Source of the DNA: Candidatus Velamenicoccus archaeovorus
Lineage (GTDB): Bacteria; Omnitrophota; Gorgyraeia; Velamenicoccales; Velamenicoccaceae
Direction of reading: 5' to 3'
Length of the DNA: 32,000 nucleotides
Assembly: GCF_004102945.1 (NCBI RefSeq)
Contig: NZ_CP019384.1
Coordinates: forward strand, 450,001 to 482,000
Positions 2,723 to 29,047 of this stretch are shown piece by piece. Below the pieces are notes generated by a model. It saw only the letters and a program-made list of their open reading frames with translations. It did not search any database and was not told the DNA's origin. The translations under genes were made by a program, and so were the position numbers. Within the stretch, counting starts at the first letter, position 1. The number at the start of each line of letters is the position of its first letter.

Positions 2723-3026
2723 AATGATCGCTTGAGATGTTTTCTAAATGTACTTTAACCTAAATATTATACTCCCCGCATAAAATTTCAATCTATTTCT
2801 ATGCGGCGGAGTATAAAAATATTGTTTAGCGTCTTAAAACACAGACAGTTTTCATGGAGTTCTTGGCCTGCATCGAGCAAGGACTTCAGTTCGTTTCACA
2901 AGGCGGGATTCCGTGCCTTCCTGGGATAGGGCACGCCTCATCCGATGGCCTTGAAGGTCTTTGCGCAAAGCCAAGGATAAAACCTCAAGGTGTTCAAAGA
3001 ACCTCTCTGAAAATGGCCGGATTTTC

Positions 3027-3054
3027 TTGTTTCCCCGCGCAATTCGGCTATAAT
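3027..3054 (+). promoter_or_regulatory. Sigma70-type promoter (TTGTTT-16-TATAAT) inside conserved 55-mer copy A
   Basis: ttgttt at 3027-3032 and tataat at 3049-3054. It lies upstream of the NlpC/P60 gene, and the same block recurs at 4751-4810. Confidence 0.5.
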
Positions 3055-3189
3055 GAAAAACTGATGATTCAGAGAGATCCAAGAGGGCGTGGGCCTATGG
3101 GATTTTTCTCATCTATTTCTCCCCGATACAAGCAATCCCGCCGATTTTTTATCAAAGACAGGCGGCGGCCTGATAAAAGCTGAAGGAGT

Positions 3190-4335: not shown

Positions 4336-4360
4336 CTGCATGTTTTGTGTAGAAAAAATT

Positions 4361-4478
4361 TTGACAGGAAAGATAAACGATTATAACATTATATCTTTCT
4401 GAGTGCATATATACAGGTTCGTGCGTGTGGAGAAGTATGAGACAAAGACGTCCATATGATCTTCTGGGGACGTCTTTT
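4361..4478 (+). promoter_or_regulatory. Repeat cassette copy 1: TTGACA-17-TAACAT promoter, short leader with mini-ORF start, hairpin with degraded T-tract
   Basis: About 97 nt (4382-4478) are near-identical to 9765-9862, with 2 mismatches by eye. TTGACA at 4361-4366, TAACAT at 4384-4389, stem aagacgtcc/ggacgtctt. Only 4 T follow the stem. Confidence 0.55.
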
Positions 4479-4640: not shown

Positions 4641-4758
4641 AACCCTCGCCTTGAATTTGTTTCCGCGCCGCAGGAACGCAAGAAGATCACCCTGCCGACA
4701 ACAACCCGGCACAGGCGTTAATTCCCCCAAAGCATCCTTTTTGAACCGCTGAATTTTC

Positions 4759-4786
4759 TTGTTTCCCCGCGTAATTCGGCTATAAT
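4759..4786 (+). promoter_or_regulatory. Sigma70-type promoter (TTGTTT-16-TATAAT) inside conserved 55-mer copy B, upstream of carB
   Basis: ttgttt at 4759-4764 and tataat at 4781-4786. The block 4751-4810 matches 3019-3078. Confidence 0.5.
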
Positions 4787-5016
4787 GGAAACCTGTGGAT
4801 TCAGAAAAGCCCGTCAGGACAAAGAAGTCAGCGGGCCTTTGACGTGCCTCGCGTTTTGAGACGCGGGGATTGATTTCCGCAGATACGAAACATCCTCCAT
4901 CTCTATGACGGACCTGACGATCAACGGCGATCGCCTTTACCGCAGTATCTTCCTTAACACACTCTTTGTCTCTCATCCTGTCTTAAATCCTGTTTCTGCC
5001 ATTTTCCGGAGGTTTC

Positions 5017-8000
5017 ATGCCCAGACGTAACGACATCCATAAGATCCTTATTATCGGTTCAGGCCCGATCATTATCGGCCAGGCGTGCGAGTTCGATTAT
5101 TCGGGGACCCAGGCGTGCAAGGCGTTGAAAAAAGAAGGTTATGAGATCGTTCTGGTTAACTCTAATCCGGCGACGATCATGACCGACCCGGGCATGGCGG
5201 ACAGGACATATATCGAACCCCTGACCGTTGAAAGCTTAGAGAAGATCATTGCCCAGGAAAGGCCCGATGCCCTGCTTCCGAATTTAGGCGGCCAGACCGG
5301 CCTTAATCTGGCGTCCAGCCTTTACAAGGCGGGTATCCTGAAAAAATACAAAGTCGAAGTGATCGGCGTCAAGGCGGACGCGATCGAACGCGGCGAAGAC
5401 CGGGAAGTTTTTAAGCAGACCATGAAGCAGTTGGATATTCCGGTACCTCGCTCGGAGATCGCGCATACCGTCGAGCAAGCCCAAGAGATCGCGTCGCGGA
5501 TCGGTTTGCCGGTCGTGGTCCGTCCGGCCTATACGCTGGGAGGGACCGGCGGCGGCATCGCCTACAACGGCGAGGAGCTTAAGGTCATCGCGACGCGCGG
5601 CCTGACCATGAGCATCGTCCATCAGGTTTTGATCGAAGAGGCGGTCATCGGCTGGGAAGAGCTTGAGCTTGAAGTCGTGCGCGACAAAAACAACCAGAAG
5701 ATCACCGTCTGTTTCATCGAAAATATCGATGCGATGGGCGTGCATACGGGCGACAGTTTTTGCGTGGCGCCGATGCTGACCGTCCCGAAAAAACTCCAGG
5801 AAAAAATGCAGGAGCTTTCCTATAAAATCGTTGACGCCATCGGCGTGGTCGGCGGCACGAACATCCAGTTTGCGCACAATAAGGCCGATGACCGCCTTGT
5901 CGTCATCGAGATCAACCCGAGGACGTCGCGCTCTTCGGCCCTGGCCTCCAAGGCCACGGGTTTTCCTATCGCCCTTGTGTCCACGCGGCTGGCGGCGGGG
6001 CTCACCCTTGATGAGATCCCATATTGGAAAGAAGGGACGCTGGAGAAGTATAAACCGAGCGGGGATTATGTCGTCATCAAATTTGCGCGCTGGGCCTTTG
6101 AGAAATTTGCGCAGGCCAAAGACGTCCTGGGGACCCAGATGAAGGCCGTCGGCGAAGTCATGAGCATCGGCAAGAATTTTAAAGAGGCTTTTCAAAAATC
6201 CATCCGGTCGCTTGAAATAGGCCGCCACGGGCTGGGCATGGCCAAGGATATCAGCAGTCTTTCGGCTGAAGAGCTCCTGGACCGCCTTTCGATGCCGTCG
6301 AGCGAGAGGGTGTTTTTGATGTATGAGGCCCTGCGCAAAGGCGTCAGCGTCAAAGAGCTCAATAAGCTGACGCACATCGGCTCCTGGTTCATCGGGGAGA
6401 TAAAAGACCTGGTGGAGTTCGAAGAGGAGATGAAGAAACATTCCTGGGGTGATCTTCCCGATGCGGGCCTCATCAAGGCCAAGGAGTGGGGTTTTTCCGA
6501 CAAATACCTATCCAAGCTTTTTAACGTCAAGGAATCCGAGGTGCGCAAAAAACGCCTGGCCGTGGGCAAGAAGGCCCGGTATGAAGCGGTGCCTGTCAGC
6601 GGCGTTGACAATGCCGCTTATTATTATTCGACGTATAGCGAAGGGAAAGACGAAGTCCCGGTATCACCGAACAAAAAAGTCATGATCCTGGGCGGCGGCC
6701 CCAACCGTATCGGCCAGGGGATCGAGTTTGATTATACCTGCGTGCATGCGGCGCTCGCGTTGCGGGATGAAGGTTATGAATCCATCATGGTGAATTGTAA
6801 TCCTGAGACCGTCTCGACCGATTACGATACGTCCAACAAGCTTTATTTCGAGCCCGTGACGGTGGAAGACGTCCTGGCCATTTACGAGAAAGAGAAGCCC
6901 ATCGGCGTGATCGCCCAGTTCGGCGGCCAGACGCCGCTGAATATCGCGGCAGAACTCAAGCGCTGCGGGGTCAGGATACTGGGGACGACTCCGGAGAATA
7001 TCGCCATGGCCGAGGACCGGGAACTTTTCCGCCAGAGGATGCTGGACCTGGGCATCCTGCAGCCGGAAAGCCAGACAGCGCGTTCGCTCGACGAGGCCCT
7101 GAAGATCGCCCAAAAGATCGGCTACCCTTTGATGGTCAGGCCTTCGTTTGTCCTGGGCGGCCGGGGCATGGAGATCATTTATGACGAATCGGCACTGGCC
7201 AAATACGCCCTGGAGGCCATCAACGTTTCGCCTGAATATCCCATGCTGATCGACAGGTTTTTGGAGGAGGCCCTCGAGACTGAAGTGGATGCGCTTTCTG
7301 ACGGGCAAGAGACGTTCGTCGCCGCCATCATGGAACACATCGAGCAGGCGGGCATTCACTCCGGGGACTCCGCCTGCGTGATCCCGCCGAGGTCCATCAA
7401 GCCCAAACACATCGAGACCATCATGAGATATACGGACATGATCGCCAAGAGCCTGGAGGTGGTCGGGCTGATGAATATCCAATATGCCATCTGCGGCGAC
7501 GAGGTTTATGTCTTGGAGGCAAACCCGCGGGCCTCCCGCACGGTCCCCGTTGTTTCCAAGGTCACGGGGATCCTGATCGCGCGCATCGCCACGCAGCTCA
7601 TGCTCGGCAAAAAGCTTACTGATTTTCCTCAACTGAAACGCAGGTTCAAGCCGCCCATGGTGGGCGTCAAAGAGGCCATCTTTCCTTTTAATATGTTTCC
7701 CGAAGTCGACCCTGTCCTTGGCCCCGAGATGAGAGCGACGGGCGAGGTGATGGGCGCTGCCGATACGTTTGAAGCCGCCTTCTTCAAGGCCGAGGACGCC
7801 GCGGGTTCGAGGCTTCCCCTTCAGGGGACCGTTTTGATCACTGTGACCGACAGCGATAAGAGGGAGGCCATCGGGTTGGCGCGCAAACTCAAAGAGCTGG
7901 GGTTCAACATTTATGCGACAGAACACACCGGACGCCATCTGAAAGAAAGAGGCATCGAAAACAGGGTGATCATGAAATTGCATGAGGGCAGGCCCAATAT

Positions 8001-8223
8001 CGCCGATGCCATTATCAACAAAGAAATCCAGTTGATCATCAACACGCCGGTGGGCAAGTCCGGCAAGGTCGACGACAGCTACATCCGGATCATGGCCATT
8101 CAGCATAAGATCCCGTATATCACGACGATGGCCGCGGCCAAGGCCAGCGTCGATGCGATCGAGGCCATGCGCAACAAAGAGATCGTTCCGAAGGCGCTGC
8201 AGGATTACCATAAGGGCGTGTAG
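5017..8223 (+). CDS. carB: Carbamoyl-phosphate synthase large subunit
   Basis: 1068 aa with two ATP-grasp halves (IGQACEFDYSGTQA and IGQGIEFDYTCVHA) and a C-terminal MGS-like domain. GGAGG lies 5 nt upstream of the ATG. No carA is adjacent. Confidence 0.97.
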   Translation: MPRRNDIHKILIIGSGPIIIGQACEFDYSGTQACKALKKEGYEIVLVNSNPATIMTDPGMADRTYIEPLTVESLEKIIAQERPDALLPNLGGQTGLNLASSLYKAGILKKYKVEVIGVKADAIERGEDREVFKQTMKQLDIPVPRSEIAHTVEQAQEIASRIGLPVVVRPAYTLGGTGGGIAYNGEELKVIATRGLTMSIVHQVLIEEAVIGWEELELEVVRDKNNQKITVCFIENIDAMGVHTGDSFCVAPMLTVPKKLQEKMQELSYKIVDAIGVVGGTNIQFAHNKADDRLVVIEINPRTSRSSALASKATGFPIALVSTRLAAGLTLDEIPYWKEGTLEKYKPSGDYVVIKFARWAFEKFAQAKDVLGTQMKAVGEVMSIGKNFKEAFQKSIRSLEIGRHGLGMAKDISSLSAEELLDRLSMPSSERVFLMYEALRKGVSVKELNKLTHIGSWFIGEIKDLVEFEEEMKKHSWGDLPDAGLIKAKEWGFSDKYLSKLFNVKESEVRKKRLAVGKKARYEAVPVSGVDNAAYYYSTYSEGKDEVPVSPNKKVMILGGGPNRIGQGIEFDYTCVHAALALRDEGYESIMVNCNPETVSTDYDTSNKLYFEPVTVEDVLAIYEKEKPIGVIAQFGGQTPLNIAAELKRCGVRILGTTPENIAMAEDRELFRQRMLDLGILQPESQTARSLDEALKIAQKIGYPLMVRPSFVLGGRGMEIIYDESALAKYALEAINVSPEYPMLIDRFLEEALETEVDALSDGQETFVAAIMEHIEQAGIHSGDSACVIPPRSIKPKHIETIMRYTDMIAKSLEVVGLMNIQYAICGDEVYVLEANPRASRTVPVVSKVTGILIARIATQLMLGKKLTDFPQLKRRFKPPMVGVKEAIFPFNMFPEVDPVLGPEMRATGEVMGAADTFEAAFFKAEDAAGSRLPLQGTVLITVTDSDKREAIGLARKLKELGFNIYATEHTGRHLKERGIENRVIMKLHEGRPNIADAIINKEIQLIINTPVGKSGKVDDSYIRIMAIQHKIPYITTMAAAKASVDAIEAMRNKEIVPKALQDYHKGV

Positions 8224-8753
8224 GGCCGCCGCACAAGCGGAGGGTTTAACCCAGAAAGGGTAGGCCTCTGCATTCCACATAGCGGAGGGTCTAATTCCGC
8301 CGGAGGCGGAAGGATTAAAGCAATCAACATTACTCCTTGCGTCTAATCACTTGGAAATTTTCGCCAGGGTAGGCCGTCGGCCTGGCGTAGCCGGCCAGGA
8401 CGGCCATCCGGCAAAAATTTCCTGCGTAGCCGCAGGGTTAATTTTGCAAGGAATAGGAACTCTATTATAGGCAAAATTAAGGAATAAGCGTTGACCCCTC
8501 GCTTAAGCACTTGAGAATTTTAGCCACGACGGGTCGGCAAAAATTCTCTGCGTAAGCTCGGAGTTAATTTTGTAAGGAAAGAGACCTCGATATAGGCAAA
8601 ATTAAGGAATAAGCATTGACTTCTCGCCTAAACACTCGAAAATTTACTGCCAGGGTTGGCTTGGCGGCCAGCCGGCGTAAATTTTCTTCGTAGGCTCGAA
8701 GTTGATTTTGCAAGGTAGGTAACCTCGCTATAGACAAAATCAAGGAGGGCAGT
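8224..8753 (+). repeat. Composite structured repeat array: H0/H1/H2 hairpins (8224-8329) plus three tandem U modules (8330-8490, 8491-8615, 8616-8749)
   Basis: Repeated units each carry two conserved hairpins (P1, P2) with compensatory substitutions. The last unit ends in AAGGAGG, 5 nt before the ATG at 8754. Confidence 0.8.
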
Positions 8754-9719: not shown

Positions 9720-9743
9720 GACTGTTGAGCCGATAAAAAAATA

Positions 9744-9873
9744 TTGACAGGTCGGCAAAACGGTTATAACATTATATCTTTCTGAGTGCATATATACAGG
9801 TTCATGCGTGTGGAGTAGTATGAGACAAAGACGTCCATATGATCTTCTGGGGACGTCTTTTTTTTGCACCTAG
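9744..9873 (+). promoter_or_regulatory. Repeat cassette copy 2: promoter, 17-codon Arg-rich mini-ORF and intrinsic terminator upstream of the nfnA-like gene
   Basis: TTGACA at 9744-9749 and TAACAT at 9767-9772. GGAG then ATG at 9820 (MRQRRPYDLLGTSFFCT*, stop 9871-9873). Stem 9828-9836/9851-9859 followed by T8 (9858-9865). Confidence 0.6.
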
Positions 9874-12188: not shown

Positions 12189-13865
<1,677 letters not shown>

Positions 13866-15225: not shown

Positions 15226-15267
15226 CCCCGGCCCTGGCCTTGCCCGAATGGCAGGCCGAGGCCGGGG
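15226..15267. repeat. GC-rich REP-like palindrome (CTGGCCTTGCCC family)
   Basis: ccccggcc...ggccgggg outer stem enclosing ctggccttgcccgaatggcaggcc. It shares the 16-mer ggccctggccttgccc with 28870-28885. Confidence 0.6.
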
Positions 15268-25269: not shown

Positions 25270-25398
25270 GTGCGGAGATATGGAACATATCTCCCTTTTT
25301 TTATTTTGTCTATTGTTGCCGGATGCGTCACGCCGAAAGTCTATGTGAATCCGCAGAAGACGGTCGAGGAGATCGGCGAGGACGAGGCAGGGAGATAA
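25270..25398 (+). CDS. Mini-lipoprotein (42 aa), start uncertain
   Basis: The GTG frame gives MRRYGTYLPFFILSIVAG|CVTPKVYVNPQKTVEEIGEDEAGR*, with a lipobox. The ATG at 25256, with AAGGAG 9 nt upstream, is out of frame by one T at the T7 tract 25296-25302. Confidence 0.4.
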   Translation: MRRYGTYLPFFILSIVAGCVTPKVYVNPQKTVEEIGEDEAGR

Positions 25399-25652
25399 CC
25401 CAGAAAGGGTAGGCCTTCCTCATACCATTAAAGGAAGGGCCTAACCCAGAAAGGGTAGGCCTTCGCAATACCAAATAAGCGAAGGGCCTAATTTTACCGG
25501 AGGCGGAAGGATTAAGGAAATAAACGTTACTCCTTGTCTAAGCACTTGAAAATTTATGCCAAGACACGTCGGCATAAATTTTCTTCGCAGGCTCGGAGTT
25601 CATTTTGTAACGAAAGGCTACCCTGTTATAGGCAAAATGAAGGAGGCGTAAG
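25399..25652 (+). repeat. Structured repeat array: H1 (25399-25444), H1 (25445-25491), H2 (25492-25510), U module (25527-25647)
   Basis: Same module family as 8224-8753. It begins directly after the TAA at 25396-25398 and ends in AAGGAGG, 6 nt before the ATG at 25653. Confidence 0.8.
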
Positions 25653-27394: not shown

Positions 27395-27578
27395 TTGACA
27401 AATACGGTATCAGGGGGTATGTTGAAAATAGATAGGTGTGGGAGTGGTGCAGTTTGAAGGGGTAAATCCGCCACTTTAAAAACACACGGCGCTTATATGG
27501 TATTGCGCCGGTGTTCGGCTTTCTGCCGAAATAAAAACCTTCATCGGGTCTATGTGCCCGGTGAAGGTTTTTTGTTTT
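27395..27578 (+). ncRNA. Candidate sRNA or structured leader: TTGACA-17-TATGTT promoter, about 150 nt multi-hairpin RNA, intrinsic terminator
   Basis: -35 at 27395-27400 and -10 at 27418-27423. Hairpins gtgtg..cacac, ggcgc..gcgcc and ttcggc..gccgaa. Terminator ccttcatcggg / cccggtgaagg plus ttttttgtttt (27538-27578). Confidence 0.4.
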
Positions 27579-28846: not shown

Positions 28847-28967
28847 GGCCATAACTTACGCCTGCCTTTGGCCCTGGCCTTGCCCTCGGCCTGCCCTTCG
28901 GGCAAGGCCAGGGCCAAAGGCAGGCAGGGAACCGTCGCGTTGCTCATGGTGCGTAAGTTATATGGCC
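28847..28967. repeat. Large GC-rich nested palindrome (REP-like, CTGGCCTTGCCC family)
   Basis: Perfect 24-bp stem 28861-28884 / 28901-28924. Outer stem ggccataacttacgc / gcgtaagttat(at)ggcc. Confidence 0.75.
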
Positions 28968-28972
28968 GAATT

Positions 28973-29047
28973 ATTTCGCCGCATTCTGCGGCGAAATCAG
29001 ACCCTTCCTTTATATGGAATGAGGAAGGTCTACCCCTTGTGGGTTAA
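28973..29047 (-). repeat. H1 + H2 hairpin modules in inverted orientation
   Basis: The minus strand reads ttaacccacaaggggtagaccttcc..ggaagggtctgatttcgccgcagaatgcggcgaaat. This matches ttaacccagaaagggtaggcc...gggtctaattccgccggaggcggaa at 8246-8311. Confidence 0.7.

Follow-up and report, generated by a model that had tools for sequence, protein, structure and literature searches.

Repetitive extragenic palindromes (REPs) of the GTAG type, together with their REP-associated tyrosine transposases (RAYTs), form systems called REPtrons, whose hosts include Escherichia coli, Pseudomonas and Stenotrophomonas (SMAG), and families of such repeats occur in Planctomycetes and Verrucomicrobia. Inverted pairs of REPs are called REPINs, and mosaics of REP clusters are called bacterial interspersed mosaic elements (BIMEs). 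A REP is a palindrome of 20–50 nt with GTAG at its front; the group 2 TnpA-REP requires bulged stems, and GTAG sits at the position of the guide sequence of IS200/IS605 elements, where it can redirect cleavage (PMC8266576). GTAG REP families include complementary stem variants with G-T pairs and extend to the Planctomycetes-Verrucomicrobia-Chlamydiae (PVC) group; their members may lie within other palindromes and seldom occur as head-to-tail dimers, and REPs affect mRNA stability (PMC3733652). An IS605-type element with TTTAA as its insertion site has also been documented (PMC11043419). Here, we describe H1, a small two-hairpin repeat found in a stretch of 32,000 nt from Candidatus Velamenicoccus archaeovorus (phylum Omnitrophota; contig NZ_CP019384.1, positions 450,001–482,000), which is called the window below. 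For the Omnitrophota, which are uncultured, there is essentially no description of the non-coding DNA; a full-text literature search found no paper tying them to REP-like or MITE-like repeats (MITEs are miniature transposable elements with inverted repeats).

With a probability of roughly 0.6, H1 represents very small non-autonomous mobile DNA elements, a family dispersed through the intergenic DNA of bacteria of the Omnitrophota type. That H1 is a mobile insertion is in itself highly probable. The evidence consists of the number of copies and the covariation of their stems, of sites that are filled in one genome and empty in another, of copies nested in or abutting other copies, and of the triplets and the strand bias that accompany the unit. 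In the window there are four canonical copies and a divergent fifth one, as follows:

8250–8294, plus strand: H1 copy 1, a 45-nt unit ending in CTAA (covariance model, 65.4 bits, E 6e-19)
8247–8249, plus strand: TAA junction triplet 5′ of copy 1, read from the sequence, which recurs as the last three bases of the unit
8249–8261, plus strand: mini hairpin of copy 1, called P0 (ACCC-AGAAA-GGGT)
8262–8292, plus strand: main hairpin of copy 1, AGGCCTCTGC / GCGGAG-G-GTCT, with a bulged G at 8287
8272–8281, plus strand: loop of copy 1, ATTCCACATA
25399–25444, plus strand: H1 copy 2, of the TTCC/GGAA subfamily, with the loop TCATACCATTAAA (covariance model, 74.1 bits)
25445–25491, plus strand: H1 copy 3, of the TTCGC/GCGAA subfamily (covariance model, 48.6 bits)
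28997–29043, minus strand: H1 copy 4, CCCACAAGGGGTAGACC...GGGTCTGA (covariance model, 64.3 bits; fold)
27480–27531, minus strand: divergent fifth copy (covariance model with filters off, 19.5 bits, E 1.6e-4)

The initial annotation of this DNA had listed the four canonical copies with positions that are right to within 2–4 nt; its inverted unit, placed at 28999–29047, lies at 28997–29043. The P0 mini hairpin, the covariation of the outer stem and the fifth copy were not in it. The 17-mer CCCAGAAAGGGTAGGCC starts exactly at 8250, 25399 and 25445 and recurs with three mismatches on the minus strand (29043–29027), where shuffling leads one to expect 0.11 matches and none of 100 shuffles reaches four. 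A gapped pattern of flank, stem and flank likewise gives four matches in the window against 0.01 expected, and the covariance model scores the four canonical copies at 49–74 bits (E 1e-13 to 1e-21). Given these expectations, and given over 100 distinct copies spread across numerous genomes and metagenomes, chance or a local duplication of no wider meaning is excluded as the source of the similarity among the four copies. All five copies are intergenic, among genes that include carB (5017–8223), a guaA-like gene, nfnAB-like genes, gdh and genes for a copper ATPase, a radical SAM protein and an archaemetzincin. Copy 2 lies directly 3′ of the TAA at 25396–25398, the stop codon of a small lipoprotein-like open reading frame (ORF), and is followed head-to-tail by copy 3 with a common TAA at 25442–25444, while copy 4 is antisense to both neighbouring plus-strand genes.

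The unit is 46–50 nt long (45 nt in copy 1), a short extragenic palindrome in high copy number, with the consensus [TAA]CCCAGAAAGGGTAG(A/G)CC-stem-loop-stem-GGG(T/C)CTAA. It consists of a 4-bp mini hairpin with the A-rich loop AGAAA, followed by a hairpin of 10–11 bp with one bulged G, which separates the outer from the inner stem in nearly all copies, and with a loop of 10–13 nt (AAT-W-CC-N3-4-TAA). The inner stems in the window, TCTGC/GCGGA with one G-U pair, TTCC/GGAA and TTCGC/GCGAA, are complementary exactly as the initial annotation had described them. Its extension of the stem beyond the bulged G was also found, and this outer stem, AG(G/A)CC/GGG(C/T)CT, itself co-varies from G-C to A-T: copies 2 and 3 have AGGCC/GGGCCT, copy 4 has AGACC/GGGTCT with A-T in place of G-C, and copy 1 has the G-T intermediate. 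The mini hairpin co-varies as well (ACCC/GGGT, ATCC/GGAT, GCCC/GGGC, CCGC/GCGG, CGGC/GCCG). GTAG characterises the main clade, where it was part of the search pattern, and its TAG can pair with the 3′ CTA; it becomes GCAG in the related locus L119 (such L numbers are labels of related loci compared with the window, for example L201 and L169), and in a divergent clade it is replaced by ACAC or ATAC with compensating changes on the 3′ side. The fifth window copy, which belongs to a clade with sister copies in L125, L127, L068 and L172, reads CGGC-AGAAA-GCCG and then ACACCGGCGC-AATACCATATAA-GCGCCG-U-GUGU, so that neither stem retains any of its sequence and the two loops (AGAAA and AATACCATATAA) are kept; it carries neither GTAG nor TAA ends.

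Outside the window, a scan of species-representative genomes with a loose pattern of 14 fixed bases returned mostly chance matches, and full two-hairpin copies were found in five metagenome-assembled genomes (MAGs) named Omnitrophota or Omnitrophica and in two named Planctomycetia. When metagenomes were scanned with a 20-mer, 97 stretches came up, in which about 130 copies can be read by eye. No match was found in viral contigs, and a phage origin was accordingly set aside. The covariance model, R1, was built from 60 distinct copies. A search of the kind that the initial annotation had suggested, with R1, returned 146 matches (102 distinct) in 669 kb of related loci and, with filters off, the fifth copy in the window; the density in the window is five copies in 32 kb. 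The intergenic repeat modules of the window are 73–80% identical to those of Omnitrophota MAG loci.

Across the 102 distinct copies, in an alignment fitted to the covariance model itself, 96.8% of the cells of the two co-varying helices pair, against 83.4% in column shuffles, and in 12 of the 14 pairs both sides have changed. Out of 500 shuffles, none attains any observed measure of pairing, and sliding the 3′ partner by one to three columns lowers pairing to 29–53%. Pairing is similar when copies are chosen by the 5′ flank and a minimal inner stem, and RNAalifold independently predicts the same fold. G-T pairs number 22, against 13 A-C mismatches. The appearance of a structure-specific recognition site, a conserved loop on a co-varying stem, to which the initial annotation had drawn attention, thus survives in a much larger sample. 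Its expectation that further copies would keep both the complementary stems and an ATWCCA loop was borne out for the stems only: the motif is present in all four window copies, but among the 64 distinct short loops collected from other genomes strict ATWCC occurs in 37, other subfamilies having for example ATACATTTAA or ATCCTTTAA. ATWCCA is therefore a subfamily signature inside a looser consensus.

Insertion can be seen when orthologous spacers are compared. Three related loci, L201, L181 and L169, are orthologous to 10.5–26.8 kb of the window at 91–94% identity, and the window itself has two unoccupied sites:

12494–12514, plus strand: unoccupied insertion site TTAA (12494–12497) with the H2-type hairpin TCTCGCCAGAGGCGAGA, followed by TTAAGGAGG and the start of gdh; filled in L201
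8438–8441, plus strand: unoccupied TTAA of the type GG(R)G-TTAA/TTTTGCAAGG, inside a long intergenic repeat; in L002, L109, L158 and L123 an H1 copy occupies this context

The spacer between nfnB and gdh reads GGAGTTAA/TCTCGCCAGAGGCGAGATTAAGGAGG-ATG in the window (12490–12530), and L201, whose coding sequence is 91% identical, carries an H1 unit exactly at the position of the slash. Around a filled site in L166 and an empty one in L119 the flanks are identical in 36 of 36 nt. In the spacer 3′ of the copper ATPase gene, the window, L169 and L181 differ in their sets of H1 while their coding sequences are 91–94% identical: there are two copies of different subfamilies in the window, a 5′-truncated compound copy and one H1 in L169, and a compound copy and one H1 in a different repeat context in L181. 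Such presence and absence at orthologous sites, together with both orientations and tandem arrays, rules out a fixed or one-off cis-regulatory hairpin.

Copies also meet one another. At 12 tandem junctions head-to-tail copies have one common TAA, in arrays of up to three copies, and a census of arrays gives 101 single copies, eight direct pairs and one direct triple. Between 10 and 12 copies are nested in the TTTAA of another copy's loop, as in L183 (...GGCCTTCCTATACCTTTAA/unit/AGGAAGGGCCTAA), and with copies lying also inside the longer intergenic repeat, the view of the initial annotation that modules nest within each other holds. Some H1 loops contain other hairpin inserts (L060, L116, L135, L156). 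Where H1 landed in the ribosome-binding site TAAGGAGG, the 3′ TAA of the unit restores that sequence. Among 105 distinct contexts of copy plus flank, the 3′ neighbour is an H2-type hairpin in 34, GGAG within 6 nt in nine and a TTTTGYAAGG module in six.

In compound copies (L060 3717–3808, L156 267–358, L116, L135, L166 and L187), the loop contains two additional hairpins, ATGCCGC-AGAAA-GCGGCAT and CTGGCTCA-TCCGAT-TGAGCCAG, which imitate the motifs of P0 and of the H1 loop. Such copies look as if a related element had entered a loop and the whole had then propagated as one unit.

What marks the insertion site? In 93 unique contexts the 5′ flank is TTAA in 46, CTAA in 31, GTAA in six and ATAA in four, that is, NTAA in 87 and (T/C)TAA in 77. 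TAA was forced by the metagenome pattern and not by the scan of genome bins, in which nearly all full copies also had it. Of 34 copies that the TAA pattern had not selected, 23 end in the triplet that stands immediately 5′ of them; concordant triplets other than TAA are TTA/TTA (three times), TAG/TAG (L119) and TGA/TGA, and about 10 pairs are discordant. This concordance fits either a 3-bp target duplication or a single guide-like sequence that chooses both cleavage sites, and a duplication looks the same as a fixed end because the triplet before the unit also ends it. Targeting of stop codons was considered and rejected: of 130 copies, only 9 have a TAA that terminates a long ORF lying upstream, and the control frames give 4 and 7. 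A tandem pair in L119 (3853–3950, minus strand) has GCAG for GTAG and the junction triplet TAG on both sides, possibly a single case in which the motif at the hairpin foot co-varies with the insertion triplet.

Orientation is biased in two respects. Within 250 nt upstream of start codons marked by a Shine-Dalgarno sequence, 65 copies are sense and 18 antisense, and many copies lie 3–50 nt from the next start codon; of 88 copies, 78 have their top strand on the strand that is G-rich at the locus. The sense and strand counts use Shine-Dalgarno-anchored starts and GC skew, respectively, since crude ORF calls are unreliable owing to shadow ORFs. Genes also favour the G-rich strand, so that a replication-linked bias and a transcription-linked bias are inseparable here.

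How would such a short unit move? It would insert at TAA (rarely at TTA, TAG or TGA), the triplet ending up on both sides, which would place copies after TAA stop codons, in TAAGGAGG, in head-to-tail arrays and in the TTTAA of loops. The folded single strand would be what the mobilising enzyme recognises, and complementary stems and conserved loops would persist because the enzyme reads that strand. The insertion behaviour points to a hairpin-reading partner that acts on DNA rather than on RNA. The enzyme would most plausibly be an HUH tyrosine (Y1) transposase acting in trans, as for REP/RAYT and for the ends of IS200/IS605, and GTAG at the hairpin foot would help to pick the cleavage triplet; judging from these analogies, a Y1/HUH enzyme is a tentative candidate, possible rather than probable.

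Several observations weigh against this reading. A scan for HUH and tyrosine motifs and a tblastn search with E. coli RayT found no Y1/HUH gene in about 0.7 Mb of H1-bearing loci, outside which a single-copy gene could easily lie; no Y1/HUH transposase gene flanks any of the 97 metagenome matches, and the window has none. (A weak tblastn match in L115 is an ordinary-looking ORF of 272 amino acids and no transposase.) The concordance of the flanking triplets resembles a 3-bp target duplication, and to our knowledge the chemistry of IS200/IS605 and RAYT yields none; the same triplets would result if a single guide served both cleavages. Within GTAG, TAG can pair with the 3′ CTA, and in the divergent clade both have changed together (ACACC/GGTGT); pairable and replaceable, it does not look like the tag of classical REPs, which is unpaired. 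Copies stand alone or head-to-tail, not in the inverted pairs of REPINs and BIMEs. Finally, the sense bias (65:18) and the excess of G-T over A-C (22:13) also fit selection on a transcript.

This last point leads to the alternative that H1 is mainly a functional RNA hairpin of 5′ leaders and operon spacers, either a site for an RNA-binding protein or a stem-loop for stabilisation or processing, whose stems and loops are kept by selection on the transcript and whose copies arose by local duplication and recombination rather than by transposition. About 78% of the copies upstream of Shine-Dalgarno-marked starts are in sense, many copies lie 3–50 nt from the next start codon beside ribosome-binding sites, G-T pairs outnumber A-C mismatches, both loops survive in a clade with wholly rewritten stems, and the top strand of copy 1 folds better than its bottom strand (z-scores of −3.1 on the plus and −1.6 on the minus strand); an effect of REPs on mRNA stability is known (PMC3733652). 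Yet 18 of the 83 copies close to genes lie antisense, in the window the minus strand carries copies 4 and 5, the former antisense to both its neighbours, and copies inserted in the loops of others disrupt the host hairpin. Copy number and subfamily vary at one spacer between genomes whose coding sequences are 91–94% identical, the contexts are unrelated but always at TAA, and no Rfam family emerged even at E up to 10 (for the whole window there was no match at the gathering score, and nothing meaningful overlapped H1 at E up to 10). As an account of the family this is rather unlikely, and a role in RNA may be a secondary function, as for REPs. In another alternative, H1 would be a MITE that a DDE transposase mobilises, with the IS5/IS1031 and IS3 types as candidates, a 3-bp target duplication and a preference for TAA or TNA. 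The same triplet on both sides, including the non-TAA cases TTA/TTA (three), TAG/TAG and TGA/TGA, and the single common triplet of tandem and nested copies would be expected of such an element, but the ends are not inverted repeats, with 5′ CCCAGAAAGG and the reverse complement of the 3′ end, G(A/G)CCCT, having only CCC/GGG in common. The unit is moreover strongly asymmetric, 46 nt is far below the usual size of a MITE, and a strand bias of 78 in 88 is unusual for DDE elements, which makes this origin distinctly improbable.

A further reading keeps mobility and changes the enzyme: H1 would be a new mobile class, of 46 nt with two fixed-loop hairpins, moved by an enzyme that is neither RAYT nor an IS200-type TnpA and co-opted in 5′ leaders of Omnitrophota, where its 3′ TAA would rebuild TAAGGAGG and its hairpins would act on mRNA. 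We regard it as quite unlikely; if it were true, the deep clade with kept loops and rewritten stems would mark a long-lived, undescribed partnership between nucleic acid and protein. H1 is compared below with the described systems to which it comes closest.

Like the GTAG REPs, H1 is short and extragenic, is present in many copies and has GTAG at the 5′ foot of a bulged imperfect palindrome; its subfamilies differ by compensatory stem changes and G-T pairs, and it is embedded in repeat mosaics and inside other palindromes, with fast turnover between relatives. The dinucleotide CT, the cleavage type of TnpA-REP, is present in the 3′ CTAA. Unlike REPs, it has a conserved 5′ extension that forms the second, mini hairpin and a long loop of conserved sequence, its junctions are exact TAA triplets, its TAG can be base-paired and is replaced in the divergent clade, and copies are single or head-to-tail, with no RAYT gene seen near any of them. 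The few inverted pairs enclose ordinary genes and show no REPIN or BIME organisation. H1 agrees with REPs in size, abundance, bulged palindrome and main-clade GTAG, but it is filed here outside the REP family because it lacks inverted pairing, because no RAYT was found in the H1-bearing loci searched and because its GTAG is pairable and replaceable.

With IS200/IS605 elements and their PATE-like derivatives H1 has in common asymmetric ends without inverted repeats, a hairpin, a short AT-rich insertion motif and strand bias. It differs from them in its 46 nt, in having one main hairpin and no pair of left and right ends, and in carrying the same triplet on both sides; left and right hairpins shared with a full-length tnpA element were not found, nor was a full-length parent, in the H1 loci examined. 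Like Correia, ERIC and RUP, which are MITEs, it is small, non-coding, intergenic, foldable and flanked by short TA-rich direct repeats, but MITEs have terminal inverted repeats and 100–300 nt, and H1 has neither property. Integron attC sites resemble it as folded single strands with extrahelical bases and a structure more conserved than the stem sequence. H1 is nevertheless not an attC site, as its end motifs are reversed (TAGGCC...GGCCTA against RYYYAAC...GTTRRRY), there are neither cassettes nor an integrase and the copies are dispersed. A CRISPR-like array was rejected because copies abut without spacers; a small ribozyme was covered by the Rfam search without a match, and the hammerhead core is lacking. 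Pairing of the H1 loop with the ribosome-binding-site-like GGAAU was dismissed in view of the loop's tolerance of T or A there.

H1 is ordinary in kind, as selfish structured repeat DNA, and unusual in form. It extends GTAG-type palindromes to the Omnitrophota in a form that combines two hairpins and conserved loops with direct arrays, self-nesting and junctions at exact TAA triplets. As it remodels spacers among strains that exceed 90% identity in their genes, it offers a marker for strain typing and for assembly breaks, and it is a defined substrate for finding the enzyme that mobilises such elements. It also calls for caution in annotation: conserved co-varying hairpins in Omnitrophota genomes are not necessarily riboswitches or regulators.

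Around the copies lie further modules, of which the following adjoin H1 in the window:

8295–8311, plus strand: H2 hairpin, TTCCGCC-GGA-GGCGGAA; H1 is inserted at the TAA before it
28974–28996, minus strand: long H2-type hairpin, TTTCGCCGC-AGAAT-GCGGCGAAA, adjoining copy 4 (fold)
8224–8249, plus strand: candidate decayed 3′ half of an earlier H1 copy, GGCCGCCGCACAAGCGGAGGGTTTAA, resembling the 3′ half of H1, CCACATAGCGGAGGGTCTAA

The initial annotation had taken H2 as a companion of H1. The hairpin is real at both places, and a long H2 beside H1 also occurs in L165, L189, L015 and L142, but H2 stands without H1 at 12498–12514 and is therefore a neighbouring module and no part of H1. It has compensatory variants of its own (TTCC/GGAA, TCTC/GAGA, TCCC/GGGA, TTTT/AAAA), and at many loci the form TYYCGCC-AGA-GGCGRRA lies immediately 5′ of TTAAGGAGG and a start codon. 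H2 thus belongs to the leader, as a conserved hairpin lying shortly upstream of the ribosome-binding site, independent of H1. As for 8224–8249, the stop codon of carB, TAG (8221–8223), is the TAG of a GTAG, and in L189 a full H1 copy precedes the homologous H1; on its letters, the segment is possibly the remnant of an earlier copy.

The small lipoprotein-like ORF before copy 2 (about 25271–25398; with RR, a hydrophobic stretch and the lipobox IVAGC) ends at the TAA joined to the H1 array. In L169 (7355–7540) the orthologous ORF continues for about 20 more codons, and it seems that an H1-associated rearrangement replaced the 3′ end of the window's ORF. A hairpin resembling an intrinsic terminator (25274–25294) overlaps its 5′ part.

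A modular unit of about 125 nt lies directly 5′ of genes at 8320–8750, 12189–12527 and 25500–25652, in three, two and one tandem copies, respectively, and is common to Omnitrophota MAG loci at 73–80% identity. It starts with a promoter-like TTGACY-N16-GARAAT and a long hairpin with a variable tip, P1, which are followed by a small hairpin and the terminator-like TTAATTTTG, a further hairpin (TTTTGCAAGG...GGCAAAA), TTAAGGAGG and the start codon. It looks like a portable promoter-and-leader cassette, and as such it may outrank H1 itself in interest. The decamer AGGGTAGGCC at 8366–8375, in the tip of P1, had been proposed as a recurrence of H1, which could not be demonstrated: the tip region scores 7.3 bits (E 1.1) under the H1 model, and the duplicate of the decamer at 12272–12281 lies within the same 175-nt repeat. 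At the tip itself (8366–8408 and 12272–12314) about 45 nt of GC-rich sequence are inserted, in which GTAG occurs twice (GGGTAGGCCGTCGGCCTGGCGTAGCCGGCCAGGACGGCC); the insert may have come from an H1 by decay or may belong to another, shorter kind of GTAG palindrome.

Other repeats of the window belong to none of these modules. A perfect 26-bp palindrome (GCCTGCCTTTGGCCCTGGCCTTGCCC, a 14-nt spacer and the complement) lies at 28860–28925, 3′ of the radical SAM gene, and a 97% complementary arm of it lies 13.6 kb away at 15230–15261, so that it represents another repeat family. A direct repeat of 126 nt (4353–4478 and 9736–9861, 93% identity) contains the palindrome AAAGACGTCC...GGACGTCTTT, and a repeat of 58 nt (3016–3073 and 4748–4805, 88% identity) ends in the promoter-like GGCTATAATG.

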